Position numbers and translations under genes: made by a program | Assembly: GCA_002327315.1 (NCBI GenBank) | Contig: DCVI01000150.1 | Coordinates: 2,114-66,113 of the forward strand | DNA length: 64,000 bases | DNA from: Syntrophaceae bacterium UBA2192 | Lineage (GTDB): Bacteria > Desulfobacterota > Syntrophia > Syntrophales > UBA2192 | Direction of reading: 5' to 3' | Shown: piece after piece, positions 2,681 through 40,757 of the stretch | How the letters are laid out: each line of letters opens with the position of its first letter | Position numbering within the stretch: the first letter of the stretch is position 1 | The notes under the pieces: model-generated | The model's database searches: none | What the model saw: the letters and a program-made list of their open reading frames with translations, nothing else | Told to the model about the DNA's origin: nothing

Positions 2681-2740
2681 AATAGGTAATGTCACTCGGA
2701 AAAAGATATTGTCACTGTCAAAAAGATAATGTCATTAGAA
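2681..2740 (+). repeat. three tandem 20-bp direct repeats (AAWAGRTAWTGTCAYTnnnA)
   Basis: aataggtaatgtcactcgga / aaaagatattgtcactgtca / aaaagataatgtcattagaa are exactly contiguous. They lie at the left edge of the AT-rich island. Confidence 0.75.
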
Positions 2741-2914
2741 CCTTCAAGAGCCATCGGGCATTACCTTGATCCATCAAACAATCGGCCCCGTCCATCCTGA
2801 AATCGGAGCAAAGACAATCATTCTTTCGAATGGAAGCTGTCTTTAAACATATGGACCACTCCAGATAGTAATGAAATAAGGCAACTTGAATACAGTAGCA
2901 TGCAGGAGGATTCG

Positions 2915-3421: not shown

Positions 3422-3508
3422 TCCAGTCCGCTTCGCGCATCCCGGAAAACCGCATGGAAGACGAAAAACATCTTGCGTGTCATGTGCGTTATGTTATATT
3501 ACATAGCC

Positions 3509-3718
3509 ATGGCGAGAGGAAAATCCGGCCGGATCGTCATCGAGATCGATCCCAAGGCAAAAAGCGATATCTACGCATGTCTGGCCAGGGACAACATGAC
3601 TATGAAGGAGTGGTTCGAGGACAGCGTTGATCGATACCTGAAGACGAGGGGGCAGCAACAACTGTTCGGCGACGAAATGATGGCAAGGAGGCGACGCAAC
3701 AGCAAAACCCGGGAATGA
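3509..3718 (+). CDS. ribbon-helix-helix (CopG/Arc/ParG-like) DNA-binding protein
   Basis: MARGKSGRIVIEIDPKAKSDIYACLARDNMTMKEWFEDSVDRYLK fits a beta-alpha-alpha RHH layout with a basic tail. TTGCGT-16nt-TATATT sits just upstream, so the transcript may be leaderless. There is no SD sequence. Confidence 0.5.
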   Translation: MARGKSGRIVIEIDPKAKSDIYACLARDNMTMKEWFEDSVDRYLKTRGQQQLFGDEMMARRRRNSKTRE

Positions 3719-4001
3719 ACTGTCCTTCCCCATTCGTTATAACTACATAAAAATAAACAATATTTCTCGGCATGAAAAAACACATGAACAGACGTCACGA
3801 CTTGTCGGTACATGGTTACCGGCACAGGTTGACCGAATGGACAAGTGGGTCGAAAAAAACAAGCAGCATGCATTTCTCCCATTCAGACTTCCAGTCCACG
3901 AGCCCCCTTTTCTAAAAAAAAGTATTCATTGAAAAAAAGATGTATAAGCAATAAGAAAAGATCAGCGGTTTTCCACCCACTTAGAAATTCGCGAGGATAT
4001 C

Positions 4002-5084
4002 ATGCCTTACGCGCGAGCAGAGTCGGAACTCTTCACCTTTGATCAATACGATTTCACGCTCCCCCCACAGGCTGGACTGTACCCGGAATTTCGCTACATG
4101 GGCTCGAAGAGCCGCCTTTTGCCATGGATCTACAGTGTTCTGAAAAGCCTAGACTTTGAAACGGCGGCCGACCCCTTCCTTGGGAGCGGCTGCGTTGCCT
4201 ACTTGCTGAAAAGCATGGGGAAGGAGGTCCTAGGAGCCGATTTCCTCAACTTTCCTACCGTAATCGCGAAAGCCTCAATAGAAAACAACACAACCCAAGT
4301 TGATGAAAAATCGTTAAAGCGCCTTTTGTCCACCCGGAAGAAAGCGCCTGATTTCATCCAAAAGAAATTCTCAGGCATTTTCTTCGATGCCGAAGATCGG
4401 GTGTTTCTCGACCGGGTCTGCGGGAATATCGAAAGCTTGGGAGATGATTACCGGCAGGCTATCGCTAGAGCAGCCCTGATCCGGTCTTGCCTTAAAAAAC
4501 AGCCCCGGGGCGTATTCACGGTATCCGGAGATCCCTCCAGATATGACGACGGCCGGCGCGACCTGCGGCTTTCCATAGAGGAGCACTTCCTTGAACAGGT
4601 TCAGGTGCTCAACGAGATCGTATTCGACAACGGGCACCGGCATAAGATTTTTCACAGCGACGTTTTCGATCTTCCGGCGGAAGGAATCGATCTCGTTTAT
4701 TTCGATCCGCCTTACGTCCCGCGATCGGACGACAATTGCTACGTGAAGCGATATCATTTTCTGGAAGGACTCTCCTGTTACTGGAGGGGACTCGAAATTA
4801 TGGAAAATACCAAGGTCAAAAAGATCGCCAAGCAATATACCCCGTTCAGTTACAGACGAACGGCCGTCGATGCCTTCCACAGGCTGTTCCGGCAATTCAG
4901 AAATTCAATCATTGTCCTCTCATACAGTTCAAACGGCTTCCCCGATTTGGGAGAGCTTGAATCCATCATGGGTCAATATAAAAAACGAGTGGTCACTTAC
5001 AAAAAGCCACACCGCTACCATTTTGGGACGCACAGTCGGGTTGAGCGTGCCCTGGTTGAAGAATTTCTGATTGTTGGTTGTTGA
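4002..5084 (+). CDS. DNA N6-adenine methyltransferase (Dam/D12-class)
   Basis: YMGSKSRLLPWI N-terminal motif, SAM-binding DPFLGSGCVAY, and catalytic FDPPYV. Confidence 0.85.
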   Translation: MPYARAESELFTFDQYDFTLPPQAGLYPEFRYMGSKSRLLPWIYSVLKSLDFETAADPFLGSGCVAYLLKSMGKEVLGADFLNFPTVIAKASIENNTTQVDEKSLKRLLSTRKKAPDFIQKKFSGIFFDAEDRVFLDRVCGNIESLGDDYRQAIARAALIRSCLKKQPRGVFTVSGDPSRYDDGRRDLRLSIEEHFLEQVQVLNEIVFDNGHRHKIFHSDVFDLPAEGIDLVYFDPPYVPRSDDNCYVKRYHFLEGLSCYWRGLEIMENTKVKKIAKQYTPFSYRRTAVDAFHRLFRQFRNSIIVLSYSSNGFPDLGELESIMGQYKKRVVTYKKPHRYHFGTHSRVERALVEEFLIVGC

Positions 5085-5920
5085 TGAAGCGCACACAGCA
5101 GACATTATCCGAAATTCTGTCCTCACTGCAGCCTCTTCAAGTCGATTGGCAGGATGATGTTGCCCTCCGGGTTATCGACTATCTGAAAACGATCCCACAA
5201 AAGAAAAAATACGGCCGGCCGGATATCAAACGCATCCTGAATCACAACTTCGATGATGCCCTCCTGATCTTCCGCTTATTTCTCGGTTTGTCCAAAGACC
5301 AATTCATTCCGATGCTCAATTCCGAGCTGGGTGGAGGCGGCAGCGGGATCAAACGCTATAATCAAGACCAGGATGCTTATATTCAGGCCTTGGTTTCTCT
5401 GGAAGTCCCCCAAGCCATGGCGGCCTGCATCAACCGGGTTCCGCACTGGTCGGACATTCTGGTGGAGCGACTGCGCAGCGGGCGTGGCAGCGCGATCAGC
5501 GGCATGAAACGCGGGCGCACGGTGGAAGACTTCGTCGAGGCGATCGTAAAGAGGATCTTCACATCGTATGATGTCCGTTGTGATTTCAGCGGTATTTCCG
5601 GAAAGAAAGCAAAATGCGATTTCGCAATCCCCAGCCGCGACTTGCCTAAAATCATTATCGAGTCGAAAGGCTATGCCGCAACCGGCTCCAAGATGACGGA
5701 CATCATGGGCGATCTGGAAAAAATCATGACAGCCAAACGCCACGACACCACGCTTCTACTCTTCACCGACGGTTTGTCCTGGAACCAGCGCCAGAGTGAC
5801 CTCGCAAAGATTATCAAGTTCCAGAATGAAGGCTACATCGAGCGGATCTATACGTTAAAGATGGCGGAGCAGCTTGAAGAGGATCTGAAGAGTTTAAAGG
5901 CGGAACTTGGGCTTGAGTGA
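5084..5920 (+). CDS. type II restriction endonuclease, DpnII/MboI-like (GATC-type suspected)
   Basis: Its start overlaps the methyltransferase stop (TGATG). KCDFAIPSRDLPKIIIESKGYAATGSKMTD resembles the DpnII core as I recall it (RFDFVI...LIEVNFYSGSGSKLNE). GRTVEDFVEAIV resembles GDAMENIV. Confidence 0.6.
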   Translation: MKRTQQTLSEILSSLQPLQVDWQDDVALRVIDYLKTIPQKKKYGRPDIKRILNHNFDDALLIFRLFLGLSKDQFIPMLNSELGGGGSGIKRYNQDQDAYIQALVSLEVPQAMAACINRVPHWSDILVERLRSGRGSAISGMKRGRTVEDFVEAIVKRIFTSYDVRCDFSGISGKKAKCDFAIPSRDLPKIIIESKGYAATGSKMTDIMGDLEKIMTAKRHDTTLLLFTDGLSWNQRQSDLAKIIKFQNEGYIERIYTLKMAEQLEEDLKSLKAELGLE

Positions 5921-5970
5921 TCTTTGCGAAATAACAGGGCCCCCGGAGCCCACGGAGCAATGCTTAAGCA

Positions 5971-7098
5971 ATGAAAAGGAATCCGAATACTTTCATAAGC
6001 TACTCCCATGATTCCGAGGAGCTTAAACGGATCATATTGGCTTTCGCAAATCAACTAAGACAACAAGGGATTAACTGTAACCTTGATCAATATGAAGAAT
6101 CGCCGGAGAATGGCTGGATTTCATGGATGGAAGCCGAGATACGCAGTAGCGATTACGTCCTTGTTGTGTGTACCGAAGGCTATACAGCAAAACTTCAGCC
6201 CGGAACCAAAAGCCCGCAAGGGAAGGGGGTCAAATGGGAAGGGGCAATCATCACACAGGAACTTTACGAATCTGAAGGAAGAAACAGGAAATTCATTCCC
6301 GTATTGTTGCACGAAGACGATAAGCCATGTATTCCGCGACCGCTCAAATCGTACACCTATTACATCCTGACTGACACGGGTTATGAAAAATTATATCGGA
6401 GACTTACAAAGCAAATCGCTATCGAGAAACCACCAGTAGGGGGAATCCTAGAATTTCCAAGGACAGGGAAGAATATCTCAAATCAGGCTTCCACACCTAA
6501 TCTCCAGCCCAAGAGCCTATCCCAGAATATTGTCGGAAACAATAACATACAGATCGGTGAATTAAGCATGCGGGCTGGCGCTACGGTACGCATCGCACTA
6601 TTGCCAGCACCGGGGACAATAGGTGCCAACCATCTATTGAAACAAGCGATGATGGATCGGTTCAATAAGTTAGGAGAGGAGCGGGAAAAACGATTTGGCA
6701 AAAGTGCATATCCGGTTATGTATAGTCTTTTCAAAAGAGCATTCGGTATAAAAAAGAAAAGGTCGTGGACCGATATTTGGAATTGGCCCGAAGCTGCGGC
6801 AGATGAGATCACAAAGTATCTAGATGAAAAATTCGCAAATACCATAGCGGGGAGAGTAGAGAGTGCTGCTCAAAAGGGAAGACGAATACCCAGTAAAGGC
6901 GACCTGTTTAGAAGAGAAAAGGAGTTGCTGGCCCAGTTGGATCTGGAGATATCGAGTCCTAAAGTAACAAATGCTTTGGTGAAATATTTTGGCGTCAACA
7001 GCCACACGAAGCTGGACTCTCTGAAACATTGGCACTGGGTAATGTATTTGGAGGAACTAGTGAGACAAGCAATCGGAGAACGGCCTTCTCGCTTTTAA
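5971..7098 (+). CDS. SEFIR (TIR-like) domain protein with an uncharacterised C-terminal domain
   Basis: N-terminus TFISYSHDSEELKRIILAFANQLRQQGINCNLDQY...GWISWMEAEIRSSDYVLVVCTEGY matches the SEFIR pattern (FISYSH, W..E, hydrophobic strand + C/S). I do not recognise any family for residues from about 190 to 375. Confidence 0.75.
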   Translation: MKRNPNTFISYSHDSEELKRIILAFANQLRQQGINCNLDQYEESPENGWISWMEAEIRSSDYVLVVCTEGYTAKLQPGTKSPQGKGVKWEGAIITQELYESEGRNRKFIPVLLHEDDKPCIPRPLKSYTYYILTDTGYEKLYRRLTKQIAIEKPPVGGILEFPRTGKNISNQASTPNLQPKSLSQNIVGNNNIQIGELSMRAGATVRIALLPAPGTIGANHLLKQAMMDRFNKLGEEREKRFGKSAYPVMYSLFKRAFGIKKKRSWTDIWNWPEAAADEITKYLDEKFANTIAGRVESAAQKGRRIPSKGDLFRREKELLAQLDLEISSPKVTNALVKYFGVNSHTKLDSLKHWHWVMYLEELVRQAIGERPSRF

Positions 7099-7118
7099 TG
7101 ATTCATCGCTAAGGACGA

Positions 7119-8387
7119 ATGAGAACTATCCAAAAGGTTATAGATTATGAAAGCGAGGAGAGCATAGTCGCAGATGTTTTCTTCGCCAAAGATGAAGCCG
7201 ATGTCTTTACGCAACGGTCCGCACTGGAGAAGGCTTATCATCAGCATAGAAAAATTTGGGTCTGCCCTGTTTGCCGGCAGCCCGTTAAAATCAGGGGGAG
7301 AAAAAACGGCATTCAATCCATGCATTTCGCGCATTTCGCAGACCTGCGTGATTGTCCGATAAAGACAGGGAAGAATTATACCAAAGGTGAAATCCTTAGG
7401 ATGGTCTACAATGGGCAGAAAGAAAGCCCGAGACATGACAGGCTGAAGAATCTCATCGCGGAACAAATATCAAAGGATGAAAGGTTTAAAGAAATCAATG
7501 TAGAGAAACGGTTTGTGGGAATCTGTAAAGACTGGAGAAAACCAGATGTCTCAGCAATTTTCAACGGGAAGAAAGTCGTCTTTGAGCTTCAGCTTAATAC
7601 AACCTTTCTCAGCGTTATAACTGAACGAAATCTGTTTTACCAAGATAATCAAACATACATTCTCTGGGTCTTCGACCACAAGCGAAAGAATATTGATGAT
7701 ATGCGGTTTATGGAAAAAGATATTGTTTATCCCAATCACCATAACGCCTTTTTCATCAATGAAGCAGTGAATGATGGCCAATTCAAGCTGTTTTGTTACT
7801 ACGAAGAACCCAATATAGTTGATGGATCAATCGAGAATGTCTGGCAGTTAAAGGAAATTGATTTTGGCGATCTGACATTTAGCGCAGATTTTCAGGTTTA
7901 TTGGTTCCATTATGAAAAGAAAAAGAAATCGCTACTTGAAGAAATAGAGCAAAACAAGTTTTTAGAATTTGGAAAGGTATGGCGATCCGCTTCTTATGAA
8001 GAGCGATCTCACCTGCTTGATAGATACAGCCATATTCTCAGAGGCCAATGTAAGGATTTTAATTTTCATGAGCTGTCGAATCTTCTGGATTGTTTATACT
8101 CAATCAAATTTAAAGAGCCCATAGGATACAAGTATGTTCGGGTCGTGCAATTATTGCATCAATATCTTGGGAAAGACACGGGCCAAGATTCGCACTTTGG
8201 TGAATATGTCTTTAAATCAATAAGAGTATACGCGCACGATCATATCAAAAAAGAAGATCGAACAAAGAAATTATCCGCTAAGGCAATAGATTACAGAAAG
8301 AAAGGGTTTAAACAATCTGACAAATACGACCCTTTTCTGAAACGGCTGTTTCCGGAGTTATTTTTAGAGGAAATGAAGAATAGGTGA
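7119..8387 (+). CDS. CoiA-like zinc-ribbon / PD-(D/E)xK nuclease family protein
   Basis: The ordered motifs CPVCRQPV...HFAHF...ESPRHDRLKNLI...WRKPDVSAIF...VVFELQLN...ERNLFY...YILWVF match the CoiA family order (CPxC, HFxH, ESxxH..K, rPDV, E.Q.S, R..Y, ilWv). The gene lies 21 bp after the SEFIR gene. Confidence 0.75.
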   Translation: MRTIQKVIDYESEESIVADVFFAKDEADVFTQRSALEKAYHQHRKIWVCPVCRQPVKIRGRKNGIQSMHFAHFADLRDCPIKTGKNYTKGEILRMVYNGQKESPRHDRLKNLIAEQISKDERFKEINVEKRFVGICKDWRKPDVSAIFNGKKVVFELQLNTTFLSVITERNLFYQDNQTYILWVFDHKRKNIDDMRFMEKDIVYPNHHNAFFINEAVNDGQFKLFCYYEEPNIVDGSIENVWQLKEIDFGDLTFSADFQVYWFHYEKKKKSLLEEIEQNKFLEFGKVWRSASYEERSHLLDRYSHILRGQCKDFNFHELSNLLDCLYSIKFKEPIGYKYVRVVQLLHQYLGKDTGQDSHFGEYVFKSIRVYAHDHIKKEDRTKKLSAKAIDYRKKGFKQSDKYDPFLKRLFPELFLEEMKNR

Positions 8388-8584
8388 ATTCGCCAGCCGA
8401 TGGGATTCTGTCAAAAGTAGACCAGATCTGGGATTAATCAATCAGGGCAGGGAATGCGCATCTGTTGCGGGAAAATGCGAACAGCCGTTTCAGCGTCTGC
8501 ATAGATAGTCCCATATGCTCCTCCAGGAATTAAAAGACTGCGCGTTAAGAGCGAGGCGAAGCCGCGTCTGCGCTGATGCCCTTG

Positions 8585-9421
8585 TTAGTCCGGCATTGCG
8601 AAGTACCGACCGCCAAGATAAGCCATGTACTCCTGATGCGCCGCCCCGGAGCCGGTCTGCATCTCAGCGAACACTGACTGGTAGCTGAGAGCCCTGAACT
8701 CGATTCCGTCGGCGACAGCTATGCGGGCGAACTCCGCCGCCTCCGCAGCGTGTTCAGCTGTCGAGGTGCCGAGGATTTCATACCATAGGTACACAAGCGC
8801 CCACTGCTTCCCCGAAGTGGCCAGTCCGAGTATGTGCTTTAGCAACTGCGCCGCGTTCAACAGCCGGAACGCCGCTTTGTCCGAGTACAGCCGTTCGGCA
8901 AGCTCCTGGCACCTCGGGTAGCCCGCTACCCGCCACAAGCCGGACTCAGACTCGAAATACTTCGCCTTGAAGCCCGATGCCGAGCCGTGGCCATAATACG
9001 GCTCGAGGAATTTGGACTCGATCGCCGTCACAGAACCGGACGGCGACGTCAGAACAACGTCCAGGTTGGGTGCGTTGCCGGGCAGTCCCGTTGGGTACTT
9101 TCGCTCGAAATCGACTCCGACGATTGGCGCCGGCAGGCGGAGAGTGGAGGCGAGCGGGGAGGCGTCGCGTCCGCGCCAGTATTCGAAGAAGTTGTATGCC
9201 AGTGCCGAAGAGGAATGCAGAGCCCGCATCTTCCCGCGGTTTCCGGGTCGACCGAGTTCACCGCCGTCGCCACTGCCGAACTCCGCAAGCGCTTGGGGCG
9301 ACATCTGCAGGAACAGGTTATCCGCGAGATCAACGACGTAACCTTGCGAGTCGGTGGCAATCCCTCGCTCACTCGCCCAGGCGCGCTGCTGGATACGCAC
9401 GAGTTTCGCCGGGGAAGGCAT
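8585..9421 (-). CDS. hypothetical protein, candidate PD-(D/E)xK-fold nuclease
   Basis: 278-aa ORF. NLDVVLTSPSGSVTAIESKFLEPY gives a D...(E)SK arrangement, preceded by HSSSALAYNFFEYW. It is more GC-rich than its neighbours. Confidence 0.55.
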   Translation of the reverse strand: MPSPAKLVRIQQRAWASERGIATDSQGYVVDLADNLFLQMSPQALAEFGSGDGGELGRPGNRGKMRALHSSSALAYNFFEYWRGRDASPLASTLRLPAPIVGVDFERKYPTGLPGNAPNLDVVLTSPSGSVTAIESKFLEPYYGHGSASGFKAKYFESESGLWRVAGYPRCQELAERLYSDKAAFRLLNAAQLLKHILGLATSGKQWALVYLWYEILGTSTAEHAAEAAEFARIAVADGIEFRALSYQSVFAEMQTGSGAAHQEYMAYLGGRYFAMPD

Positions 9422-9475
9422 CTGTCACCTCCAGATCAAGTTGTAACTAGGCAATTCTGTCCCTTAGTTGCGGAA

Positions 9476-10531
9476 TCAAGTGGGTCCCGTCCCCGAAATA
9501 ATGGCGATTGTATTGATGAGTGAACGAGTAGCTTCCGCGCACAGGGCGGCGTCACGAAAGCCGGCTGTACGACGGTGTTGTAGGCTCACGGCAAGGTCAT
9601 ACAAGGCCTTCATGAATCTTCTCTGTGCATCGTGTGAGCCACCGCTTAGCTGTTTCGTGATGAAGCCGTCAAGCATCCGCTTGGCATCAGCCTCGCTGGG
9701 AGTTACTCCGTCAGACAAGGCGTGCTGTTCTCGATCATAGACTGCTTGGGCAAGGGAGATCATCGACTCACGGCACAGCAATCCGATCGATTGAAAATCC
9801 TCTTCATCAGTTGCTGTTTCCAGAGCTCTGACTATCTTCTCTACGTTTCTGTCGACGCGTGCCCATCCAGTTGGCTCTATGGGTTGTATTGGCTTGGCTC
9901 TTGTACTGAGCTGCAATGCGTCTAACAAGGATTGATAGAGGGACGAGATGTACATTCTGCGCGATTGATATGTCGGCAAGCTTCCGTCGCTCCACTTACC
10001 GTACCAAGTCCATAGATTCGGATACGGGTTTGGATCTCCGATAGACAACGCTGCTAAATTTTCTTTTATTTGAAGTCGCCTGTCTTCGTACTCCCGGGCC
10101 ACATCTTTGATTCTTGGCCCACCTGTTGCCACAGAAATCATGAGCGCCTTCTGGGCTTCAACTGTCTGAATTAATTCATTCATCTCGGCCTGCAGCAGCG
10201 GGGAATCTACAGTTGACGCATTAGCATAGCTGATTGCTATCGCCCGCGTGCGAATACCTTTCAGATAAGCTCCGCTCGGTAAGGTTGCGGTGATTGCTCG
10301 TTCAATGCTTTTGGTCAGAGGATCCCGCTGGTTTGTCAGAATGTCGTATGATTTTCGGGGGCAGCTCAATTCAATCAGGACACCGTCCAACTGCCGATTA
10401 CCGTCCATCCAATGGTCGACAATGTCCCAGTCCTCGACTGTGCATGTCCGCAAAAGATTCGCCGCTTCTGCTTCGCCACCGTCAAAAAGGAACTGAATCG
10501 ACTGCTTGAGTAATTCTTCGTCAATCTGCAT
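9476..10531 (-). CDS. hypothetical protein (351 aa), no recognised catalytic motif
   Basis: ATG at 10531 has a GAGGA RBS, whereas the track start at 10579 is TTG. Conserved-looking segments are NPYPNLWTWYGKWSDGSLPTYQSRRMYISSLY and the C-terminal helical bundle WARVDRNVEKIVRALETATDEEDFQSIGLLCRESM. Confidence 0.55.
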   Translation of the reverse strand: MQIDEELLKQSIQFLFDGGEAEAANLLRTCTVEDWDIVDHWMDGNRQLDGVLIELSCPRKSYDILTNQRDPLTKSIERAITATLPSGAYLKGIRTRAIAISYANASTVDSPLLQAEMNELIQTVEAQKALMISVATGGPRIKDVAREYEDRRLQIKENLAALSIGDPNPYPNLWTWYGKWSDGSLPTYQSRRMYISSLYQSLLDALQLSTRAKPIQPIEPTGWARVDRNVEKIVRALETATDEEDFQSIGLLCRESMISLAQAVYDREQHALSDGVTPSEADAKRMLDGFITKQLSGGSHDAQRRFMKALYDLAVSLQHRRTAGFRDAALCAEATRSLINTIAIISGTGPT

Positions 10532-10703
10532 CCTTATTCCTCGAATCCGATGAAGTTCATCTATCGTCTCGGAGCGCAACGGAAGTGGTCAGATGCACCG
10601 TCGTGCTCGATCGAAAAACGCTATAAGACGGCGCTGTTTTGTTGTCCCCACGACTCGACAAGAAAAATAGCCGCTGCGCCCGCCAGGTTTATCTATAACT
10701 CAT

Positions 10704-11099
10704 TCAGTCGTTGCGGAACGCATCGCCTTTCGTAGCGCGGGTCACGGCGAGTTCAACGATTCGGTCCATGACGCGGTTAATGTCTTTCCACTTCATGACA
10801 AGCTTGCCTGGGTCCATTCCATACTGTGCGACAATATCGCGTAGCTGATCGAGAGTGAGCATGCTGATTTTAGCTCGTAGTTCGCTTTCTCCCTGACGGG
10901 CGAGTTCCACGGGATCAAGCACGGCGGGGGTACGTCTTCCCCCTTTTCGCCTTTTCGCCCCCCCTGCTCGCGGCTGTGGCACGCCAAGCGAATCGTTGAT
11001 CCCAAGTACACGCTCGACGTTGGCCCGAAACGACTCGTTTTTTTCGGTTTCCTCTATGATGGCAGAAACGAGAGCGGAAAGTCTTTTTTTGAGAGTCAT
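10704..11099 (-). CDS. small protein translationally coupled to ParA (candidate ParB/ParG-type adaptor)
   Basis: ATGA start/stop overlap with the ParA gene. It has a basic unstructured middle (PRAGGAKRRKGGRRTP) and a helical C-terminus (LTLDQLRDIVAQYGMDPGKLVMKWKDINRVMDRIVE). Confidence 0.55.
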   Translation of the reverse strand: MTLKKRLSALVSAIIEETEKNESFRANVERVLGINDSLGVPQPRAGGAKRRKGGRRTPAVLDPVELARQGESELRAKISMLTLDQLRDIVAQYGMDPGKLVMKWKDINRVMDRIVELAVTRATKGDAFRND

Positions 11100-12151
11100 T
11101 CATCCATCTCCAATTTCTTGAGAAGCTCCTTCGCTAGATCGACACAGCGCTCTGCTAGATCGCCGTATCCGTATTTCTGCTTAAGCGTTCGCCGCCCACC
11201 AGTTTGAAACTCGGCGGCGGTGGCAAACTGATCCGCCTGACGAAGGATGGTATCGAATACAGGGGGAGCATTCTCCTTGCGAAGGTTGTCCGTAACGTTC
11301 ACATGAGTTTTTGAGTTCGCTTGAAACTTTGTGATAACGATTCCGAGTGGTGTGATCTCCTCTGCAATCTCACGGGAGAAGTTACGCACTCGTTTGACGA
11401 TCTGCGGGATACCGTATGTTGACAGGAAGTCGGCCACAGTCGGAATAATATATCCCTCCGAGATGCGGAGCCCGTTGAGTGTGATGATCCCAAGATTTGG
11501 AGGACAATCCACGAGCACCAAGTCGTAGATGTCATCGTCCAGCTTTGCCTTGACAGCGAGGCGGAGTAGATCAATCGGAGTCACCGAATAGAATTGACCG
11601 GAAGGGGCGCTGGCCAGTTTGTCCTGAACATCTATGAGATCGATGCTTGACGGCAGAAGATCAACCTTTTCCGCGCCCTGCACGTCTGACACCTTCCGCT
11701 GTAATGTTTTCTCCAGATCGAATGTTCTGTTCTGCGGGTCTAAAGCGTCTTTGAACAGGGTGGCAAGAGTCCAGCCCTTTTCGTTAATCTGCTTCCAGCG
11801 CGTCTCCCCGATTAGCATGACTGTGGCATTGGTCTGCGGGTCCAGATCAATTACTAATACACGTTTGCCGAATCGTGCAGCGAGCGTTTCGGCCAGCGCG
11901 ACTGTCGTCGTCGTCTTTGCGACACCACCCTTGAGATTGATGAGAGAAATAACACGAGCCATTGGAAATTTCCTCCTTCTTAGCCAGCCCTGGACTTGTC
12001 TCGTCCGGAAGACCGGCCCTGCTTTAAGATCAGCAATGGGTTTCGGGAAATCAGGGAAGCGAGCACGCCAATTGGCCACTGCTTGCCGCGATACTCCCGC
12101 CAGTTCAGCAATCTCATTAATACCTAATAGGTCATCTTCTAGAAGAGCCAA
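11096..12151 (-). CDS. parA: ParA/Soj-type P-loop ATPase with N-terminal HTH (type Ia ParA-like)
   Basis: N-terminal HTH INEIAELAGVSRQAVANWRARF. Deviant Walker A KGGVAKTTTTVALA, plus VLVIDLDPQ and LVLVDCPP motifs. The start codon is TTG. Confidence 0.85.
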   Translation of the reverse strand: MALLEDDLLGINEIAELAGVSRQAVANWRARFPDFPKPIADLKAGPVFRTRQVQGWLRRRKFPMARVISLINLKGGVAKTTTTVALAETLAARFGKRVLVIDLDPQTNATVMLIGETRWKQINEKGWTLATLFKDALDPQNRTFDLEKTLQRKVSDVQGAEKVDLLPSSIDLIDVQDKLASAPSGQFYSVTPIDLLRLAVKAKLDDDIYDLVLVDCPPNLGIITLNGLRISEGYIIPTVADFLSTYGIPQIVKRVRNFSREIAEEITPLGIVITKFQANSKTHVNVTDNLRKENAPPVFDTILRQADQFATAAEFQTGGRRTLKQKYGYGDLAERCVDLAKELLKKLEMDE

Positions 12152-12187
12152 GCCACCACATCCTTGTGAGCTACGTTAACACTTACT

Positions 12188-12202
12188 GTGTACAACGTAC
12201 AC
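12188..12202. promoter_or_regulatory. palindromic operator candidate upstream of the HTH-ParA operon
   Basis: GTGTAC-AAC-GTACAC is a perfect 6-bp inverted repeat 37 bp upstream of the parA start. Confidence 0.4.
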
Positions 12203-12349
12203 ATACTATTGTCAAGTATTTTTTGCCCCTTCGGGGGAAAGCTTCTAACTATTGACAAAACAATACATTTTATCCAGTAATCAGGCGCGGCTTGGGATCA
12301 AAGGTAGGCAATCTTAATAGTGGTCCGCCCCGGGCCTTATCTGCAAAAT

Positions 12350-12479
12350 GCAAAAAGTTAGCGTCATCAGACTGAAAGCCAGACATTGACTGACATTAAC
12401 TTTTTGCTCCCTCCCGATGGCTAACTCATTGATTTTGTAAGATCACGAAGGACAATAACTTTTTGCAGTTCACATGTGA
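12350..12479. repeat. cluster of inverted/direct 11-mers and a 10-bp palindrome at the right edge of the island
   Basis: GCAAAAAGTTA (12350-12360) is the reverse complement of TAACTTTTTGC (12397-12407 and 12456-12466). GACATTGACTGACATTAAC at 12382-12400 carries TAATGTCA-type motifs in inverted orientation. TCACATGTGA lies at 12470-12479. Confidence 0.7.
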
Positions 12480-12719
12480 CCGGGAAAAAGGGTGAAATGC
12501 GTGGTACGGATATTGCTATTCTGCACGGTGGAAACACGCGTGAGCGTATCCTCGCAAATCGCTGCAAGGTGAGAAAGAAACGGAACAGACATAACGATTC
12601 ATTGAGTTTCTGAAGTCCCGGCGCCCTGGCGGGGGAAATCCATAATCCCGGAATGCAGGTGGGATATGAATCTGAAAGAATCGACAGCTGCGCGAGCTCC
12701 GATAGCAAGGGGAGGAGTC

Positions 12720-13103
12720 ATGACCCAGCGACCCAAAGTGCTCATGATCGACGACAACAAGGAAATCTGCCGGCTCATGAAGGAATACCTGGAAAGATCG
12801 GGCAGATACGAAGTGACGGTCTTCACCGATGCGAGAATGGGAGTCCGCTATGCCCAGATCGAGAAGCCCGATGTGATCCTGATGGATCTCATGATGCCCG
12901 ACATGGACGGCACGGAGGCGGCCGAGCATCTCCTCGAAGACGAAGCGACCTGCAACATTCCCATTATCTTCATCACGGCGGCGATCAAGAAAGCCGAGGT
13001 TGACGATCGCCTTGGCCGGATTCACGGGCACCCCATCCTGGCAAAGCCCGTCACCCCCATCGAGGTCATGAACGAGATCGAAAAGGTGTTGGCCTTCACC
13101 TGA
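12720..13103 (+). CDS. single-domain response regulator (CheY-like receiver)
   Basis: GGAGG RBS before ATG 12720. VLMIDDN...DVILMDLMMPDMDG...ILAKP receiver signature with no output domain. Confidence 0.85.
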   Translation: MTQRPKVLMIDDNKEICRLMKEYLERSGRYEVTVFTDARMGVRYAQIEKPDVILMDLMMPDMDGTEAAEHLLEDEATCNIPIIFITAAIKKAEVDDRLGRIHGHPILAKPVTPIEVMNEIEKVLAFT

Positions 13104-13186: not shown

Positions 13187-16054
13187 TCAGATCATCACCG
13201 CCGTCACGGCATCCTCGAGGCTGATAACCCCCTGGAGCACCTTGTTGACGGCATCCTGTTTCAGGCTTCGGAACGTGCCGTACCGCTCGGCGGCGGCGCT
13301 TATCTCGGCGGCGGCGGCCCCCTTCAGGATCATCTCCTGGATCCCGTTGTCGTTGACAAGGACCTCGAAGAGGGCGGTGTGCCCCTTGAATCCCGTGTTC
13401 TTGCAGGCGGGACACCCCGCGCCCCGGAAGAATCGTCCGCCCGCCATCGATTCGAGCCCCAGGGAGGCCAGGACTTGTTCCGTTGGTTCGTAGGGTTCAC
13501 GGCAGGCGGGGCAGATTGTCCGCACGAGCCGCTGTCCGATCGAGGCCGACAGGGCGGAGGCAACGGGGAAGCGCTCCACGCCCATTTCGAGGAGGCGGGC
13601 AATGACGCCTGCCGCATCGGGCGACTGGATCGTGCTCAGGAAACGGCGGCTGGAGAGGGCCGTCTGCACGGCGAGCGCAGCCGCCTCGGCGTCACGGATC
13701 TCCTTGAGATAGACCACGTCGGGGTCCTGCTTCAAAATGAGCCGGAGATTGCCCGCAACGGTCAGACCGGCCTTGCGGTTGAACTCGATCTGGGTCACTC
13801 CCGCCAGGGGGTGTTTGACGGAGTCCTCCAGGGTGAAGATCTCCGTATCGGGCTTGATCATCCCGCGCAGCAGGGTATAAATGGTGGTGCTTTTTCCGCT
13901 TCCCTCGGGCCCCGACACGAGGATGAGCCCCTGCGGCTTTTCCAGGACGGAAGAGAGGCTGTCCAGGTCCTTCGGGGAGAGTCCCAGCTGCTCCAGGCCG
14001 AAGGTGTTTGCGCTCAGATCCGTCAGGTGCAGGATCAGGTTCTCGCCGTTGACGCCCGGGATGGTGGAGACGAGCACGCTCAGCTCCCTCTCGCCTACCC
14101 GTTCGACGAACCGGCCTTCCTGGGGAATACCCCGGGTGCTGCTGTCGATGTTGGCGATATCCTTGACCCAGGAGATCACCGGGAGGGACATCGACTTCGG
14201 CAGATCGGGCAGGTCGTGGGTCTTTCCGTTGACACGGAACCGGACGCGGACGTTCTTCGCCTGGGGAGTGATGTGGATATCCGTTGCCCCCTCTCGGACA
14301 GCCTGGACGAGCAGCATTTCAAGAAGCCGGTCGGCAGGGGCTCCATTTTCCTGGACAGGCGCGGCAGGTGCCGGCTGGGGATGGGCCGCGGCGGCCGCCA
14401 TGGAAGGCGACCCCATCTCCTGGGCCGCAGCCCGGGGACGAGCCTCGGAGGAATAGCTCCCCATGGGCATGTCGTAGATGATGCCCATGAGCCGGTCGAA
14501 CTCGCGCTCCGTGCAGATGACCGGTTCCACCCCTTCCTCCGACTGCATCCTCAGCAGGTCGAGGGCATAGCGGTTGGTCGGATCCGGCATGGCCACGACG
14601 AGGTGGCGGGTGGTCTTTCTCAAGGGAGCCGCCTGGTGTTTCCTGGCGAAATCCATGGGGAGGAGTCTCGAGAGGCTCAGATCGACAGGGTACTTGTCGG
14701 GCAGGTAACGCTCGATCCGAAGCTGGCGACTGAGGATGTCCACGATCTGCGAATCCCGGAGGAACCCCTGCTGGACGAGAAGCTTGCCGAGCCGCAGGCC
14801 GGTGTAGCGCTGTGCTGCAAGGGCCTCCTCGAGCTGCAGCTCGTCGAGAAGCCGGGCCTCCAGGAGGAGCTCACCCAGCCTCTTCCACTGCCCGTCGACG
14901 ACCTCCAGGTCCAGCGACTCGGCCTTCCTGGTCTCAATCTCGGCGATGAAGTCGGGGAAATCGCCTTCGATCAGGGTCTGCTCCTTGGCCACCGATGCGG
15001 CCCTCAGGAGGATTTTCTCCAGTTCCGCCACGTTACCCGGCCAGGTGTACTCGACGAAACGGTCCATCACCTCCCGGGTGACGCCGAGGATGTTCTTGCG
15101 GAATTCCTGGTTGATGAGCTGAATGAAGTAGTCGACCAGCAGCGGGATGTCTTCCTTGCGCTCCCTCAGCGGCGGCATGTAGAGGGTGACCACGTTGAGA
15201 CGATAGTAGAGATCGTCCCGGAAGGTCCCTTCCTTGATCATTCCGCGGATGTCCTTGTCGGTGGCCGCCATCACCCGTGCGCTCAGCGCGATCTTTTCCC
15301 GGCTCCCGATCCGCTGGAATTCACCGGTTTCGAGGACCCTCAGCAGGCGCGCCTGAAGGTTCAAGGACAGCTCGTGCACCTGGTGGAGGAAGAGCGTGCC
15401 GAGGCCCGCCTCTTCGAACTTGCCGACCTTGCGGCTCGTGGCGCCCGTAAAGGACCCTTTTTCGTAGCCGAACAGTTCGGTCTCAAGGACCTGCTCGGAT
15501 AAGTCCTCGCAGTTGACGATGACGAAGGGCTCGTTTTTCGCGGCAAAATTGTGGAAGGTCTTCGCCAGGAGCGACTTGCCTGTCCCCGTCTCGCCCAGGA
15601 GGAGCACGGTCCGGTCTTCGGGCTTGATCATCATGATCTGGTTGAAGAGGATCCGGACGCGCTTGCTCTGCCCGATGAATTCCGGGAACAGGACCTTGCC
15701 CTCCACCTTGCTGAGCAGATCGCTTACCTGTTCGAAGACGGCATTGAATTCCTTGATGTCATCGCCTTTGCCCTGCTTTTTGCCCCTCGCCTGTCGCGAC
15801 ACGGCAGGAATGAGCTTCATCTTGGTAATGAAATTCTTCATGGGCTTCAGCAAAAGCCACGTGATGAGGAGCGCGCACGCAAATGCGAAGATCCCGATTC
15901 CCAGGCCCCACCATTTCAGGTAGAGCTCCGGATCGGGAATGAGCCTCGTGTATTTCAGGATCTGGTGCGTCGTGATGACGGAAAGAAGGGCAATCCCCCC
16001 GAAGATGATGGGGACGAGCACATAGAGACTGATGTTGAAACGCGGGTGTTTCAT
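13187..16054 (-). CDS. membrane-anchored sigma-54 AAA+ / MshEN / GspE-like ATPase fusion protein without an HTH
   Basis: Two N-terminal TM helices. EBP core with GETGTGKS and a GSFTGA loop, but Walker B reads LFLHQV instead of LFLDEI. Two MshEN-type motifs: [53 protein letters not shown]. GspE core has [21 protein letters not shown] and CPAC..CPAC, but the His box is replaced by [12 protein letters not shown]. Confidence 0.85.
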
Positions 16055-16471
16055 GGCATTCTCACCTTGGGTACTTCCTGTTCATCCGCAACATTTCAGC
16101 CGGACCCTTTCGGGCCATCCCCCCGGAAACAGGGCCGCCGCACCAGCCGGAGGCCTCTCCCGGTGTTCGTGGAGGCCCAGGGGGTACGGGGTTCCTGTTT
16201 GAGCATTTCGTACGATAACAGAGCCGTCCCGTTTTGCAATACGACGCCAGTATGATTTTAAACTACGAGAATAGTATGGCTTTTTCCGTTTATCGGACGC
16301 GTTCTCCCTCGATGATGTCGCGGGGTTTACCGAACGGAAGTCGCACGAAAAAGAAGTGATGAGGAACGCCGGCGTCGCGCTCGAGAAACGAACCTGTCAG
16401 TCATGGCGAGAATATTTGCACGAAGCGTACCAAAAAGCATCTGTTTTCAAGAAGATGGGAGAGACCGCCCC

Positions 16472-37717: not shown

Positions 37718-39091
37718 TCAGACTTTGATGCCGTATTTTTCGATGCGGTAGATCATGGTGGGGCGCGACATGCCCAGAAGCTTTGCCGCCTTGGCCCTGT
37801 TCCCGCCACTGCGCTCCAGGGCCTGGACAATGAGATCCCGGTCCAGCTCGTCGAGGATGAGGCCTTCCGGCGGGATCTTCCACGTCGTACTGTCCGTCTC
37901 GCCGGAAAGTGGGGCCGCTTTCGTCAGGAAGTCCAGATGGCCCTTCGTGATCTCGGGCCCCTCCTCCATCAGCATGACCCGCTCAATGGCGTTGCGAAGC
38001 TCCCGGACATTGCCCGTCCAGGGGTGCTCCATGAGAAGGCGTCCGGCATCATCCGTGACTTTCTGGAAATTCTTCCGGAATCGCTGGTTGAACTTGTCCA
38101 TGAAAAAAAGAGTGAGCGCCGCGATGTCCTCCTTGCGCTCCCTCAGGGGCGGGATGGTGATCCGGGCGACGTTGAGGCGGTAATAGAGATCCTCGCGGAA
38201 GGAGCCTTCCCGGATGCACTCTTCGAGGCTCTTGTTCGTGGCGGCGATGATCCGCACGTCGACGTGCTTCTTCTCGGAGCCGCCCACGGGGTAGAAGGCC
38301 TTTTCCTCCAGAAAGGTCAGCAGCTTGACCTGTGCCGCAGGCAGAAGCTCGCTGATCTCGTCGAGGAGCACCGTGCCCCCGTTTGCCGCCTCGAACTTCC
38401 CCTTCTTCCCCTCCTGGAGCCCGCCGGTGAAGGTGCCCTTTTCGTAGCCGAAGAGCTCGCTCTCCACGAGGTCCTTGCTGATGGCCCCGCAGTTGATGCT
38501 CACGAAGGGCTTGTCGAAGCGGTCGCTGCGATGGTGGATGAGACGCGCGATGACCTCCTTGCCCGTGCCCGTTTTCCCCTCGATGAGGACCGTCGTGTCG
38601 TAGCTTCGGGCGATGGTGTCGGCCAGCCGCAGGGCGAGCTTCATGGTCGGGCTCTGGGCGACGATGTTCTCGAGGTTGTAGTCCTTGACGAATTGTTTCC
38701 GGAGCTCTTCCACCTCCCGCTTGAGCTTGAGGGTCTCCAATGAGCGCTCGATGATGAGATCGAGTTCCTCGATGTCGAGGGGCTTCACCAGGTAGTCGAA
38801 AGCGCCCAGCTTCATGGAGCTGATGACGGACTTCACGTCCTCGTAGGCCGTCATCATGATCACCACGGCTTCCCCGTTGAGCTGCCGGATGCGGCGGAGG
38901 GTCTCGATGCCGTTGATGCCCGGCAGGCGGATGTCCAGCAGGACGAGGTCAAAATTGTGCGACGGGATCAGCCGCAGGGCCTCCTCACCGCTTCCGGCGA
39001 TCCGCGTGTCGTATTTCTCCGACAGGATCGTGTCCAGGGAGTTTTGAAGAAGCTTGTCGTCATCGACGATGAGGATCTTATACCGGTACAT
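37718..39091 (-). CDS. sigma-54-dependent response regulator (NtrC family)
   Basis: Receiver domain (ILIVDDD, LVLLDIRLP). AAA+ domain (GKTGTGKE, GTFTGG loop, canonical VLLDEISEL). Fis-type HTH (AKAAKLLGMSRPTMIYRIEKYGI). Confidence 0.9.
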   Translation of the reverse strand: MYRYKILIVDDDKLLQNSLDTILSEKYDTRIAGSGEEALRLIPSHNFDLVLLDIRLPGINGIETLRRIRQLNGEAVVIMMTAYEDVKSVISSMKLGAFDYLVKPLDIEELDLIIERSLETLKLKREVEELRKQFVKDYNLENIVAQSPTMKLALRLADTIARSYDTTVLIEGKTGTGKEVIARLIHHRSDRFDKPFVSINCGAISKDLVESELFGYEKGTFTGGLQEGKKGKFEAANGGTVLLDEISELLPAAQVKLLTFLEEKAFYPVGGSEKKHVDVRIIAATNKSLEECIREGSFREDLYYRLNVARITIPPLRERKEDIAALTLFFMDKFNQRFRKNFQKVTDDAGRLLMEHPWTGNVRELRNAIERVMLMEEGPEITKGHLDFLTKAAPLSGETDSTTWKIPPEGLILDELDRDLIVQALERSGGNRAKAAKLLGMSRPTMIYRIEKYGIKV

Positions 39092-40757
39092 GGCCCCTCC
39101 CGTCGTCGATGGGGAACCGCAGCGTGAACGTCGTTCCCTGCCCTTCACGGCTTTTGACCTCGATCACGGCGCGGTGCTGCTCCAGGATCTTGTGGGCGAT
39201 CGAGAGCCCCAGCCCCGTCCCCTCGGGTTTGGTCGTGAAGAAGGGGTCGAAGATCTTCGAGAAATCATCCTTCGGAATCCCGACACCGCTGTCGCTGATG
39301 GTGACACAGAGCTGCCGGCGCGGTTTTTTCGCATCCCGCTCGATGCGGCTCTCCACCCGGACGGTGCCTCCCTTCGGCATGGCCTGCATGGCGTTGAGCA
39401 GGATGTTGACGAAGACCTGGTGGATCTGCTGGTTGTCGAAGACGATGTCGGGGGCGTCCTGTACGAGGGACAGCAGCACGCGGATTTCGTGCTTCCGGAA
39501 CTGGGACTCCAGCAGGGAGACGGCATCCTCGATGCACTGGCGGATGGAGTCGCTCTTCAGCTTCGGGGGGGCCGGCCGGCAGAAATCCAGCATGCCCTTG
39601 ACGAGATCCTTGATCCTGTCGACTCCGGTCAGCGTGTCGTCGATGATCCTTCGGGTCTTTTCGTCCGGGTCGAGCTGCCTGGCGAGGAACTGGACGTTGA
39701 AATTGATGCTGGCCAGGGGGTTGCGGATCTCGTGGGCGATGCCGGCCGAAAGCTGTCCCAGCGATGTGAGCCGGTCCATCCGCCTCATCCACTCCTCCGA
39801 TCGCTTGGCCTCCGTGAGATCGCGGGCAATCAATACGGCACCCAGTATGGTCCCGTCCCGGCTCTTAAGCTGGGAGGAGCTGACGCCGAGGACGGCCCTG
39901 CCCCCCTGCTTTCGCCTGATGATGAGCTCCCTGCTTTCCGTGATCTGGCCGTTGATGGCCTCCCGGATGATCGCGGCGACGGGTCCCTCGAAGACCTCCG
40001 AGGCGGCCCTGCCCTGCACCTGCTCCTTTTCCAGTCCGAAGAAGTCCCCCGTCATCTCGTTGATGGTGCGGATCGTTTCGTCGCAGTTCACGACAAAGAT
40101 GCAGTTCGGCGAGCTCTCCACGACATTTTCCGCGAAGTTGCGCTCGTTGACGAGCTGCTCGTAGAGGCGCGTGTTTTCGATGATGATGCTTGCCTGGTTG
40201 GCGAAGATGGACAGGTGCTGGATGTCCTCCTCGGTGAGGACCAGGGGGTACCCGCCCCGGTCCGCCTCGATAAGGCCGATGACGGACTCCCTTAAATGCA
40301 GGGGAACGGCGATGGTGGCAAAACGGTTCTGTTTTGCGCTGACCTTCCGGTCCAGATAGGTCACCCGGCTGTCGGCATCGTAGTCCCGGATATAAACGGT
40401 CTGGCCGGTCTTGACCACCAGGGTTTCGATGCACTCGTGGCGCACCAGATGAAAGGGGCGCTGAAAGGCAATCTCCATCTCCTCGGGCGTGAAGCCGATC
40501 TCATACTTGCACTCGAGTAGCTTGCGGTCCTTGTTGACCAGGTAGATTGCCACGCGGTCATAACCGAAGACATGCGCGGTTTCCTCGACGATGGCGGTCA
40601 GGACGGTGTCAAGGGCTACAGGTCGGGTGAGCAGGCTGCTGATCTTGTGGACGGAGGAGAGGAGCCGGTCCTTTGCATGAAGATCGCCCTGATACTCCTG
40701 GGGCTTCCAGGACGATGTCTCCTGATTATTTTTTGAAGTTTCGGATGTACGGCTCAT
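39078..40757 (-). CDS. GAF-like/PAS sensor histidine kinase
   Basis: H-box SAGIAHEIRNPL, N-box NILLNAMQAM and G-boxes DSGVGIP and GTGLGLSI. It overlaps the RR gene by 14 bp. The alternative TTG start is at 40787. Confidence 0.85.
   Translation of the reverse strand: MSRTSETSKNNQETSSWKPQEYQGDLHAKDRLLSSVHKISSLLTRPVALDTVLTAIVEETAHVFGYDRVAIYLVNKDRKLLECKYEIGFTPEEMEIAFQRPFHLVRHECIETLVVKTGQTVYIRDYDADSRVTYLDRKVSAKQNRFATIAVPLHLRESVIGLIEADRGGYPLVLTEEDIQHLSIFANQASIIIENTRLYEQLVNERNFAENVVESSPNCIFVVNCDETIRTINEMTGDFFGLEKEQVQGRAASEVFEGPVAAIIREAINGQITESRELIIRRKQGGRAVLGVSSSQLKSRDGTILGAVLIARDLTEAKRSEEWMRRMDRLTSLGQLSAGIAHEIRNPLASINFNVQFLARQLDPDEKTRRIIDDTLTGVDRIKDLVKGMLDFCRPAPPKLKSDSIRQCIEDAVSLLESQFRKHEIRVLLSLVQDAPDIVFDNQQIHQVFVNILLNAMQAMPKGGTVRVESRIERDAKKPRRQLCVTISDSGVGIPKDDFSKIFDPFFTTKPEGTGLGLSIAHKILEQHRAVIEVKSREGQGTTFTLRFPIDDGRGHVPV

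Follow-up and report, generated by a model that had tools for sequence, protein, structure and literature searches.

The 64,000-nucleotide stretch analysed here (hereafter the window), from contig DCVI01000150.1 of Syntrophaceae bacterium UBA2192, encodes a 955-residue protein which joins, in a single chain, a membrane-bound sigma-54 enhancer-binding protein (EBP), a MshEN domain of the kind that binds cyclic di-GMP (c-di-GMP) and an ATPase of the PilB/GspE type. The fusion is a conserved inner-membrane protein, and its gene is real and under purifying selection. Residues needed for hydrolysis are lost from both ATPase modules, and the c-di-GMP pocket is essentially kept. Our tentative interpretation, to which we would give a probability of about 0.45, is that the protein may serve as a non-catalytic, c-di-GMP-responsive regulator, acting by protein contacts on a circuit of sigma-54 and the type IV pilus. 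The gene and its parts are as follows.

13187..16054, minus strand: the whole fusion gene, an open reading frame (ORF) of 955 aa
15962..16030, minus strand: transmembrane helix 1, about aa 9–31, from hydropathy, an AlphaFold2 (AF2) helix at 10–36 and the alignment of N-terminal modules
15845..15913, minus strand: transmembrane helix 2, about aa 48–70, from hydropathy and an AF2 helix at 42–79
15689..15844, minus strand: juxtamembrane helical linker, aa 71–122, from AF2 helices of low predicted local distance difference test score (pLDDT)
15182..15676, minus strand: Sigma54_activat AAA+ core, aa 127–291 (Pfam PF00158, 195.5 bits against a cutoff of 20.2, E 6.8e-58)
14921..15166, minus strand: AAA+ lid (AAA_lid_14), aa 297–378 (Pfam PF25601, 72.7 bits)
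14723..14881, minus strand: predicted c-di-GMP-binding unit MshEN_N, 53 aa, aa 392–444, consisting of two 24-aa motifs and the spacer RYTGL
14465..14716, minus strand: MshEN_C subdomain, aa 447–530 (Pfam PF05157, MshEN, 63 bits)
14342..14464, minus strand: Ala/Pro-rich low-complexity linker, aa 531–571 (pLDDT < 50; 12% invariant columns)
13208..14350, minus strand: PilB/GspE-type N2D and C-terminal domain (CTD), T2SSE, aa 569–949 (Pfam PF00437, 298.7 bits, E 6e-89)

A preliminary description of this DNA had proposed the order of two transmembrane helices, EBP core, MshEN and GspE/PilB ATPase, and this is upheld by Pfam, hydropathy and the AF2 secondary structure; it had also noted the missing C-terminal helix-turn-helix (HTH), and the Pfam scan indeed finds no HTH_8 in the 955-aa protein. 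The MshEN domain begins at the place occupied by the HTH in the canonical relatives of the N-terminal half, which are unfused membrane EBPs of 441–453 aa. Alignment of the N-terminal modules shows that fusion and canonical proteins have in common the motif SLYxL(I/V)PxIFxG in transmembrane helix 1, as well as the juxtamembrane linker. An identification of this linker as HAMP was rejected, since the likeness is one seen by eye and Pfam gives no HAMP match. Secondary structure alone was taken from the full-length AF2 model, which is weak (pLDDT 62.5, predicted template modelling score (pTM) 0.35).

Alignment of the EBP module to the solved EBPs ZraR and NtrC1 reveals an intact Walker A (K160) and a Walker B altered from GTLFLDEI to GTLFLHQV, where H224 and Q225 replace the Asp-Glu pair.

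15380..15385, minus strand: replaced Walker B acidic pair H224–Q225, from the EBP alignment and the motif states across the family

The pair reads HQ or NQ in 37/37 sequences of the clade to which the query belongs (clade 1), and the sensor-II arginine has become alanine (A343, within WPGNVAELE), again invariantly in all 37. The RxDxxxR motif is intact (R279, D281 and R285, aa 279–285). The sigma-54-contacting L1 loop, GAFTGA in the consensus, is GSFTGA at aa 200–205, a form found too in canonical members with an intact Walker B; within clade 1 its Phe position holds F, Y or H, and the T, G and A are invariant. What the preliminary description had said of Walker A, the GSFTGA loop and LFLHQV is thus confirmed by alignment to solved structures, and the canonical LLDEISEL of its NtrC-type comparison protein is found, as VLLDEISEL, in the ORF at 37718..39148 (minus strand). 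The product of this ORF is a response regulator of the NtrC type whose L1 loop reads GTFTGG and whose Walker B DE is canonical; it has an HTH and is paired with a GAF-PAS histidine kinase at 39078–40787 on the same strand.

The consequences of such Walker B changes have been studied in PspF, where D107A, E108A and E108Q each leave <1% of wild-type ATPase activity (PMC3419264). The Vmax of E108Q is ~0.2% of that of the wild type, at 0.07 versus 39.5 min−1 (PMC4132715, PMC3419264); this variant has a 32-fold increased affinity for ATP, forms constitutive hexamers and, with ATP, enters an intermediate complex with RNA polymerase (RNAP)-sigma54 (PMC4132715). The earlier doubt about ATP-driven remodelling by the EBP core is strengthened by the fixation of HQ/NQ in 37/37 close homologues and by the loss of the sensor-II arginine.

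In the PilB/GspE-type module the similarity to assembly ATPases extends over nearly the whole length, with TIGR02538 (the PilB equivalog) spanning aa 393–949 at about positions 2–558 of 564, yet the score of 402 lies under the cutoff of 675.65, and TIGR02533, at 400 against 630.25, misses the equivalog level too. Alignment to solved PilB/PilF proteins shows that Walker A (GPEGSGKST, K721) and the catalytic Glu (E785, in KEIRD) are kept, as is the tetracysteine motif CPAC...CPAC, all four Cys of which are conserved in both clades of the family, and that the His box of these proteins, TGHLVLSTLHTNDA, is replaced. Residues of Geobacter metallireducens PilB (GmPilB), mapped through the 5tsg alignment with roles taken from PMC5424180, correspond to the fusion as follows.

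GmPilB E357 (Asp box), Mg coordination: K747 in the fusion
GmPilB R271, arginine finger: L661 in the fusion
GmPilB R286, arginine finger: H676 in the fusion
GmPilB T411-G412-H413, His box: S801-S802-R803 in the fusion
GmPilB H420, gamma-phosphate contact: Q810 in the fusion

The GmPilB study assigns Mg coordination to E357, phosphate sensing to R271 and R286 and the contact with the gamma-phosphate to H420 (PMC5424180). The positions of R271, R286 and E357 are replaced in 37/37 clade-1 sequences (by L/V/Q, H/N and K/R, respectively), and that of H420 is Q, P or N in all except three clusters, which have His; some members of the family also show a Lys to Arg change in Walker A. The CTD is the fastest-evolving structured part of the protein, with 42% invariant columns. 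The preliminary account of this module, with Walker A, catalytic Glu and tetracysteine kept and the His box replaced, therefore stands as far as it goes, and has to be extended by the loss of both arginine fingers and of the Mg-binding Glu. Because Walker B (HQ), sensor II (Ala), the arginine fingers, the Asp-box Glu and the His box are all lost, both rings are predicted to be pseudo-ATPases, and neither should hydrolyse ATP.

The 24-residue c-di-GMP-binding motif of MshEN has been published (PMC5013675), and the version given in the preliminary description matches it exactly. Its claim of two such motifs with the 5-aa spacer RYTGL also holds: a residue-by-residue test places them at aa 392–415 and 421–444. 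Eleven of the 12 published contact residues are identical in the fusion and the remaining one is an L to I change in motif 2, which satisfies the relaxed pattern given by the authors of PMC5013675; the sole other deviation is an Arg at the turn-Gly position of motif 1, where the PilB proteins of Myxococcus and Geobacter have Asn. MshEN_N has the highest share of invariant columns (88%), and its ratio of non-synonymous to synonymous substitution rates (dN/dS) of 0.056 is among the lowest of all regions. The clade-1 c-di-GMP pocket is thus essentially intact and strongly constrained. In Vibrio and elsewhere among bacteria, MshEN is the route by which c-di-GMP influences pilus motors (PMC5013675).

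The fusion occurs in >30 independent assemblies, from bacteria resembling Syntrophales. Clustering at 90% identity sorts the full-length homologues, which are 80–96% identical to the query and come from assemblies of JGI, ENA, NCBI and Logan, into 36 groups, the named ones being Syntrophales metagenome-assembled genomes (MAGs), and a scan with the N-terminal module added 30 metagenome loci. The same uninterrupted ORF is present in >60 independent contigs from various projects and assemblers, so the possibility raised earlier that two genes had been fused by assembly does not apply. Comparison with a relative whose protein is 83% identical gives a dN/dS of 0.14 for the whole gene and of 0.05–0.18 for the regions tested: the juxtamembrane linker and both MshEN subdomains have the lowest values, 0.05–0.07, followed by the transmembrane region at 0.10, the EBP core and lid at 0.13–0.15, and the PilB N2D and CTD at 0.17–0.18.

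Two truncated entries, P0042 and P0043, end after MshEN, and the source of P0043 proved to be a noisy long-read contig with adjacent genes split as well. In these two and in L084 (ENA contig_11464), long-read frameshifts have caused the fusion to be called as two genes, and the RtcB and SBBP genes of L084 are split likewise; such assemblies call for caution when domain architectures are counted.

Among the 150 best matches of 1.84 billion cluster representatives, EBP and PilB modules occur together only in P0015, which is the query's cluster, and in P0045. Top matches of ~1000 aa were considered as further fusions and rejected, the nine that were scanned with Pfam being tandem T2SSE-T2SSE, triple-MshEN PilF-like or tandem Sigma54_activat proteins. 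Entries P0121 and P0123–P0126 (~1000 aa), P0128 and P0141 carry two complete T2SSE domains in tandem or two to three tandem Sigma54_activat domains, some with FHA. A profile search with the N-terminal module returned fragmentary proteins only, and the contexts of two N-terminal fragments, L087 and L088, were uninformative or came from noisy contigs.

P0045 belongs to a second clade of the fusion, together with L153, L159 and L161; these four are 64–87% identical to one another and 44–46% to the query, and have the same layout of transmembrane region, linker, EBP, MshEN and PilB. The transmembrane region, 56% identical between query and clade 2, has the top value among the regions. The catalytic losses of clade 2 lie elsewhere: its Walker B reads DE or DD, Leu or Phe takes the place of the final Arg of RxDxxxR (equivalent to R168) in 4/4, and sensor II is Met or Thr in 3/4; in the PilB part the His box is deleted, the R286 position is Asn in 3/4, and P0045 has Arg for the Walker A Lys and Asp for the catalytic Glu. 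The two clades thus appear to have eroded independently at different catalytic residues, which is the pattern expected once catalysis is dispensable. The RLG motifs of clade-2 MshEN are also broken, reading [DE]LG and K[VL]K. In Vibrio cholerae MshE (VcMshE), substitutions at the glycine and arginine positions of RLG abolish or weaken c-di-GMP binding (PMC5013675), and because clade 2 is substituted at these positions it probably does not bind the nucleotide.

The origin of the fusion is indicated by its unfused relatives. In a scan of GTDB genomes with the family alignment, matches to a generic EBP peptide pattern swamped the rest, and no list of species with the fusion resulted; among the matches listed, however, split genes came to light in Desulfatibacillum alkenivorans. 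In strain DSM 16219 (NZ_FQZU01000016.1) both halves of the fusion are separate genes of one cluster.

L003, 3155–15098: D. alkenivorans cluster of PilMN, PilO-like, PilP-like, secretin, MshM-like AAA, MshE, MshG/PilC and a 451-aa EBP

The MshE of this cluster (570 aa) is fully canonical and 45% identical to the C-terminal half of the fusion. The 451-aa EBP (L003 13079–14434) is 37% identical to the N-terminal half, transmembrane helices included, and has the same transmembrane hairpin and linker together with GAFTGA, FLDEIG, GNVRELRN and a Fis HTH; downstream of it comes a sigma-54 promoter close to the consensus, and a type IV pilin gene follows. The same arrangement recurs in the canonical loci sampled (L003, L119–L168). 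The canonical membrane EBP directly follows MshG in 41/41 metagenome loci with enough upstream DNA, the genes PilMN-PilP-secretin-MshM-MshE-MshG precede it wherever the contig extends, and one or two type IV pilin genes with GFTLIE come after it in 29/30 loci. A sigma-54 promoter, TGGCACGGATGATGCT, is present ~140 nt past its stop codon in 17/30 loci, and in 23 loci the perfect palindrome TCTACATAAWATGTAGA overlaps the end of the EBP gene on the side of the pilin promoter. Because of this position in the pilus cluster, with the promoter and pilin genes downstream, the canonical 441–453-aa protein most likely activates the pilin genes as a single, membrane-anchored component. The family, apparently undescribed, could be the one-component counterpart of PilS/PilR.

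Neighbour-joining trees were built for each half; in both, the two clades of the fusion join each other, and their sister group is the canonical EBP or MshE lineage. The fused PilB halves have long branches. The simplest reading of these trees and clusters is a single old fusion between copies of the cluster's own activator and motor, with MshEN taking the place of the HTH. Since its nearest unfused relatives are neighbours in one cluster, the fusion can be described as a pilin-gene activator joined to its pilus motor. The preliminary suggestion of a coupling of sigma-54, or of a secretion or pilus machine, to the membrane fits this origin and, as a function, is something we infer; the fusion cannot power a pilus or secretion machine, because both arginine fingers and the Mg-binding glutamate are gone. 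Another adjacency of a PilB gene and an EBP gene is seen in a different lineage, a Polyangia MAG (L006 4608–8644), where the gene for a PilB-like ATPase of 779 aa, extended at its N terminus, stands immediately before that for a soluble, HTH-bearing EBP of 531 aa.

The surroundings of the fusion gene contain the following elements of regulatory interest.

16417..16432, minus strand: sigma-54-type −24/−12 element TGGTACGCTTCGTGCA, upstream of the fusion gene
12720..13103, plus strand: stand-alone CheY-like receiver gene, convergent to the fusion gene (Pfam Response_reg)
12502..12517, plus strand: near-consensus sigma-54-type promoter TGGTACGGATATTGCT, upstream of the receiver gene
2534–2624, minus strand: c-di-GMP-I riboswitch (74 bits), in front of an SBBP repeat gene at 408–2564
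L001 13538–13631, L084 13616–13706 and L085 13407–13497: c-di-GMP-I riboswitch of relatives, between receiver and SBBP genes

The pattern TGGTAC-N5-NTGCA is found upstream of the fusion in 33/34 clade-1 loci scanned, the exception having too little upstream DNA. Across the window, 23 sigma-54-like sites were found against 24 expected, which is not above chance, and the promoter claim therefore rests on position and on conservation across loci. The first ~220 nt after the element, a leader at about 16200–16416 (minus strand), are nearly invariant in clade 1 and mostly absent in L085, where the leader is ~90 nt and the sigma-54-type element is nevertheless kept. The leader matched no Rfam family and RNAalifold covariation in it was almost nil; it could be a protein-binding DNA element or an RNA element.

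Clade-1 loci have a common order of S1-domain protein, YbjQ-like protein (missing in L085), fusion, convergent receiver, c-di-GMP-I riboswitch and SBBP beta-propeller protein. The receiver adjoins the fusion throughout clade 1 (synteny in L001, L084, L085 and six metagenome loci) and is a possible partner of it; its promoter is conserved in L001 and L084, and L085 has the variant CGGCATGTTTATTGCT. As the riboswitch lies beside the fusion locus in the relatives, the ancestral locus combined two c-di-GMP-responsive elements. Compared with L001, L084 and L085, the window has an insertion of ~9.9 kb with lower GC (about 2625–12470) between riboswitch and receiver promoter, which looks like a defence island: its genes encode a D12 adenine methyltransferase and DpnII-like endonuclease, a TIR/SEFIR protein, a CoiA-like DUF6035 nuclease, a REase-ARP endonuclease and a ParA-like AAA_31 protein with an N-terminal HTH. 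The window yielded no tRNA genes. Clade-2 loci contain neither the receiver nor the SBBP gene.

Considering how such a protein might work, we propose that the EBP module would be a natural counterpart of the PspF Walker-B trap; because HQ/NQ equals the trap mutation, tight ATP binding and stable hexamers are expected. The ring might grip sigma-54 through L1 without turning over, or its subunits might enter the rings of the active membrane EBP and so poison or modify them. The dead PilB-like ring with MshEN could form a conformational or docking element under the control of c-di-GMP, possibly at the MshG/PilC platform, and the net effect would be to damp or gate sigma-54-dependent (pilin) expression from the membrane, with the fusion's own sigma-54 promoter closing a feedback loop. 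Where fusion loci and canonical pilus clusters were recovered from one sample, their tetranucleotide correlation of 0.98 equals that between the two halves of the window, which is consistent with one population carrying both.

Several observations weigh against this proposal of a c-di-GMP-responsive regulator. The broken MshEN motifs of clade 2 mean that c-di-GMP sensing is not a function of the whole family, a sigma-54-type element lies upstream in only 2/4 clade-2 loci, and no partner gene is conserved in both clades, the receiver and SBBP genes going with clade 1 only. The variable L1 Phe (F/Y/H) would argue against a strict need for canonical sigma-54 contact. Neither in the window nor within 10 kb of the fusion in 35 loci is there a homologue of PilC/MshG, PilMNOP, secretin or MshM, or a pilin gene, and the evidence that fusion and canonical cluster co-occur amounts to shared samples and tetranucleotide similarity. 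The palindrome TCTACATAAWATGTAGA is missing near the fusion and receiver promoters, and the canonical EBP is therefore not evidenced as their driver. The AF2 model (pLDDT 62, pTM 0.35) is uninformative on inter-domain geometry, and we infer the functional steps from motifs throughout.

The same modules could be arranged to opposite effect, with the fusion as a positive co-activator in the manner of FleT, which would co-assemble with the 441-aa membrane EBP and donate RxDxxxR in trans as the PilB-like part tethers the mixed ring to the pilus base, stimulating or retargeting sigma-54 transcription. Both RxDxxxR and Walker A are kept in clade 1, and the transmembrane and AAA+ regions are 45–50% identical to those of a canonical EBP, clusters of which occur in the same samples with the same composition. 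Walker-B-dead PspF subunits are complemented in mixed rings by subunits defective in the arginine finger (PMC3419264), and FleQ/FleT and HrpR/HrpS are natural EBP hetero-oligomers. The loss of the R168-equivalent Arg in clade 2 means, however, that donation in trans is not a function of the whole family, and fusion and canonical cluster are never adjacent; we regard a co-activator of this kind as unlikely.

Similarly doubtful is a role confined to the pilus machine, in which the dead PilB-like hexamer would compete with MshE/PilB for the MshG/PilC-PilM platform, as a decoy or brake controlled by c-di-GMP, and the EBP would be a mere scaffold or anchor with no part in sigma-54 function. Purifying selection on a full PilB fold, with its Zn tetracysteine and MshEN, would be accounted for, as would the variable L1 Phe, and MshEN mediates c-di-GMP action on pilus motors in Vibrio and others (PMC5013675). 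Yet the EBP core is at least as constrained as the PilB part (dN/dS 0.13 versus 0.18), of which the CTD evolves fastest among structured regions, the T, G and A of the GAFTGA loop are invariant, and the fusion gene itself has a conserved sigma-54 promoter.

A narrower mechanism within the sigma-54 circuit is a membrane-tethered anti-sigma-54 device, whose ATP-trapped EBP ring would sequester sigma-54 or its RNAP holoenzyme (E-sigma54), with release set by c-di-GMP on the dead PilB ring and its own expression under sigma-54 control. This we think rather improbable, and to our knowledge a dedicated sigma-54 sequestration factor of such a kind has not been described.

It is very improbable that the protein is a working assembly ATPase of the type IV pilus or type II secretion system (PilB/GspE/TadA) with an extra regulatory AAA+ domain, as source names such as 'type IV pilus assembly protein PilB' or 'ATPase, T2SS/T4P/T4SS family' would have it. 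Those names reflect a strong T2SSE match with Walker A and catalytic Glu present; against them, the arginine fingers and Asp-box Glu, invariant or highly conserved residues of the family, are replaced in 37/37 and the His-box His in all but three clusters, TIGR02538 scores far under its cutoff (402 against 675), Walker A has K to R in some members, and no platform, pilin or secretin genes lie within 10 kb. Database names such as 'PilB' and 'TadA' are thus misleading for this family. An assembly chimera or a functionless, decaying pseudogene, for which the truncation of P0042 and P0043 after MshEN and the many degenerate catalytic motifs might speak, has a practically negligible chance against >60 independent contigs with an uninterrupted ORF, the noisy long-read contig and split neighbours of P0043, a dN/dS of 0.14 overall and 0.05–0.18 by region, and a family old enough for two 45%-identical clades.

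The fusion is taxonomically narrow yet mechanistically suggestive. As a Rosetta-stone protein it predicts physical contact between a membrane-bound sigma-54 pilin activator and a pilus assembly ATPase, and this link between pilus assembly and pilin transcription is testable in cultivable Desulfobacterota, e.g. Desulfatibacillum. It provides a textbook Walker-B trap mutation that has been fixed by evolution in an EBP, and thereby a natural model for non-hydrolysing AAA+ regulators, as well as a new output architecture for MshEN-based c-di-GMP signalling, and it reveals an apparently unstudied one-component alternative to PilS/PilR, the membrane-anchored EBP that ends pilus clusters. The carriers are syntrophic, aggregate-forming anaerobes, for whose partnership with methanogens pili and surface behaviour matter.

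The known systems to which the fusion can be compared each cover a part of it. The C-terminal 565 aa align end to end with the MshE/PilB extension ATPases (V. cholerae MshE, Myxococcus and Geobacter PilB), and the MshE of Desulfobacterota pilus clusters is 45–50% identical to this half. Like these proteins the fusion has the double MshEN motif, N2D, CTD, Walker A, catalytic Glu and tetracysteine; unlike them it has no arginine fingers, Asp-box Glu or His box, lies outside the pilus cluster and is anchored by a foreign N-terminal half. That half has the same transmembrane hairpin, linker and AAA+ core as the canonical 441–453-aa membrane EBP, with 45–50% identity to the nearest members over aa 1–385. 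The canonical protein has GAFTGA/GSFTGA, the Walker B DE, the sensor-II Arg and a Fis HTH and sits just upstream of sigma-54-dependent pilin genes, whereas the fusion is without HTH, DE pair and sensor-II Arg; no publication on this canonical family was found.

The laboratory ATP-trap variants E108Q and D107A of PspF are altered at the same positions as the fusion, from the acidic pair to an amide or another non-acidic residue. They are engineered, soluble AAA+ domains, whereas the change in the fusion is natural, fixed in a clade, accompanied by the loss of sensor II and joined to other modules. FleT with FleQ of Rhodobacter sphaeroides and HrpR/HrpS are EBPs that are without a functional DNA-binding domain or are hetero-oligomeric, and may need a partner EBP; FlgR and CtcC are further examples. 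The FleT/FleQ and HrpR/HrpS proteins are soluble and none is fused to a secretion-type ATPase, and we know of no loss of hydrolysis motifs in these or in FlgR and CtcC-type EBPs.

Myxococcus PilB offers a precedent of another sort, as a signalling protein for exopolysaccharide production independent of pilus assembly (PMC5544727) and as a mutual allosteric sensor of c-di-GMP and ADP (PMC6957770), so that a PilB fold can pass its nucleotide and c-di-GMP state to a regulatory pathway; unlike the fusion, it has remained a functional motor and carries no transcription machinery in the same chain. The EBP-MshEN-PilB architecture is unmentioned in the MshEN paper (PMC5013675) and its supplement, in a 2024 PilB review and in the full-text literature searched. 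The individual domains are well known, and EBPs which lack DNA binding or form hetero-oligomers have precedents; the combined architecture is new in the literature searched.

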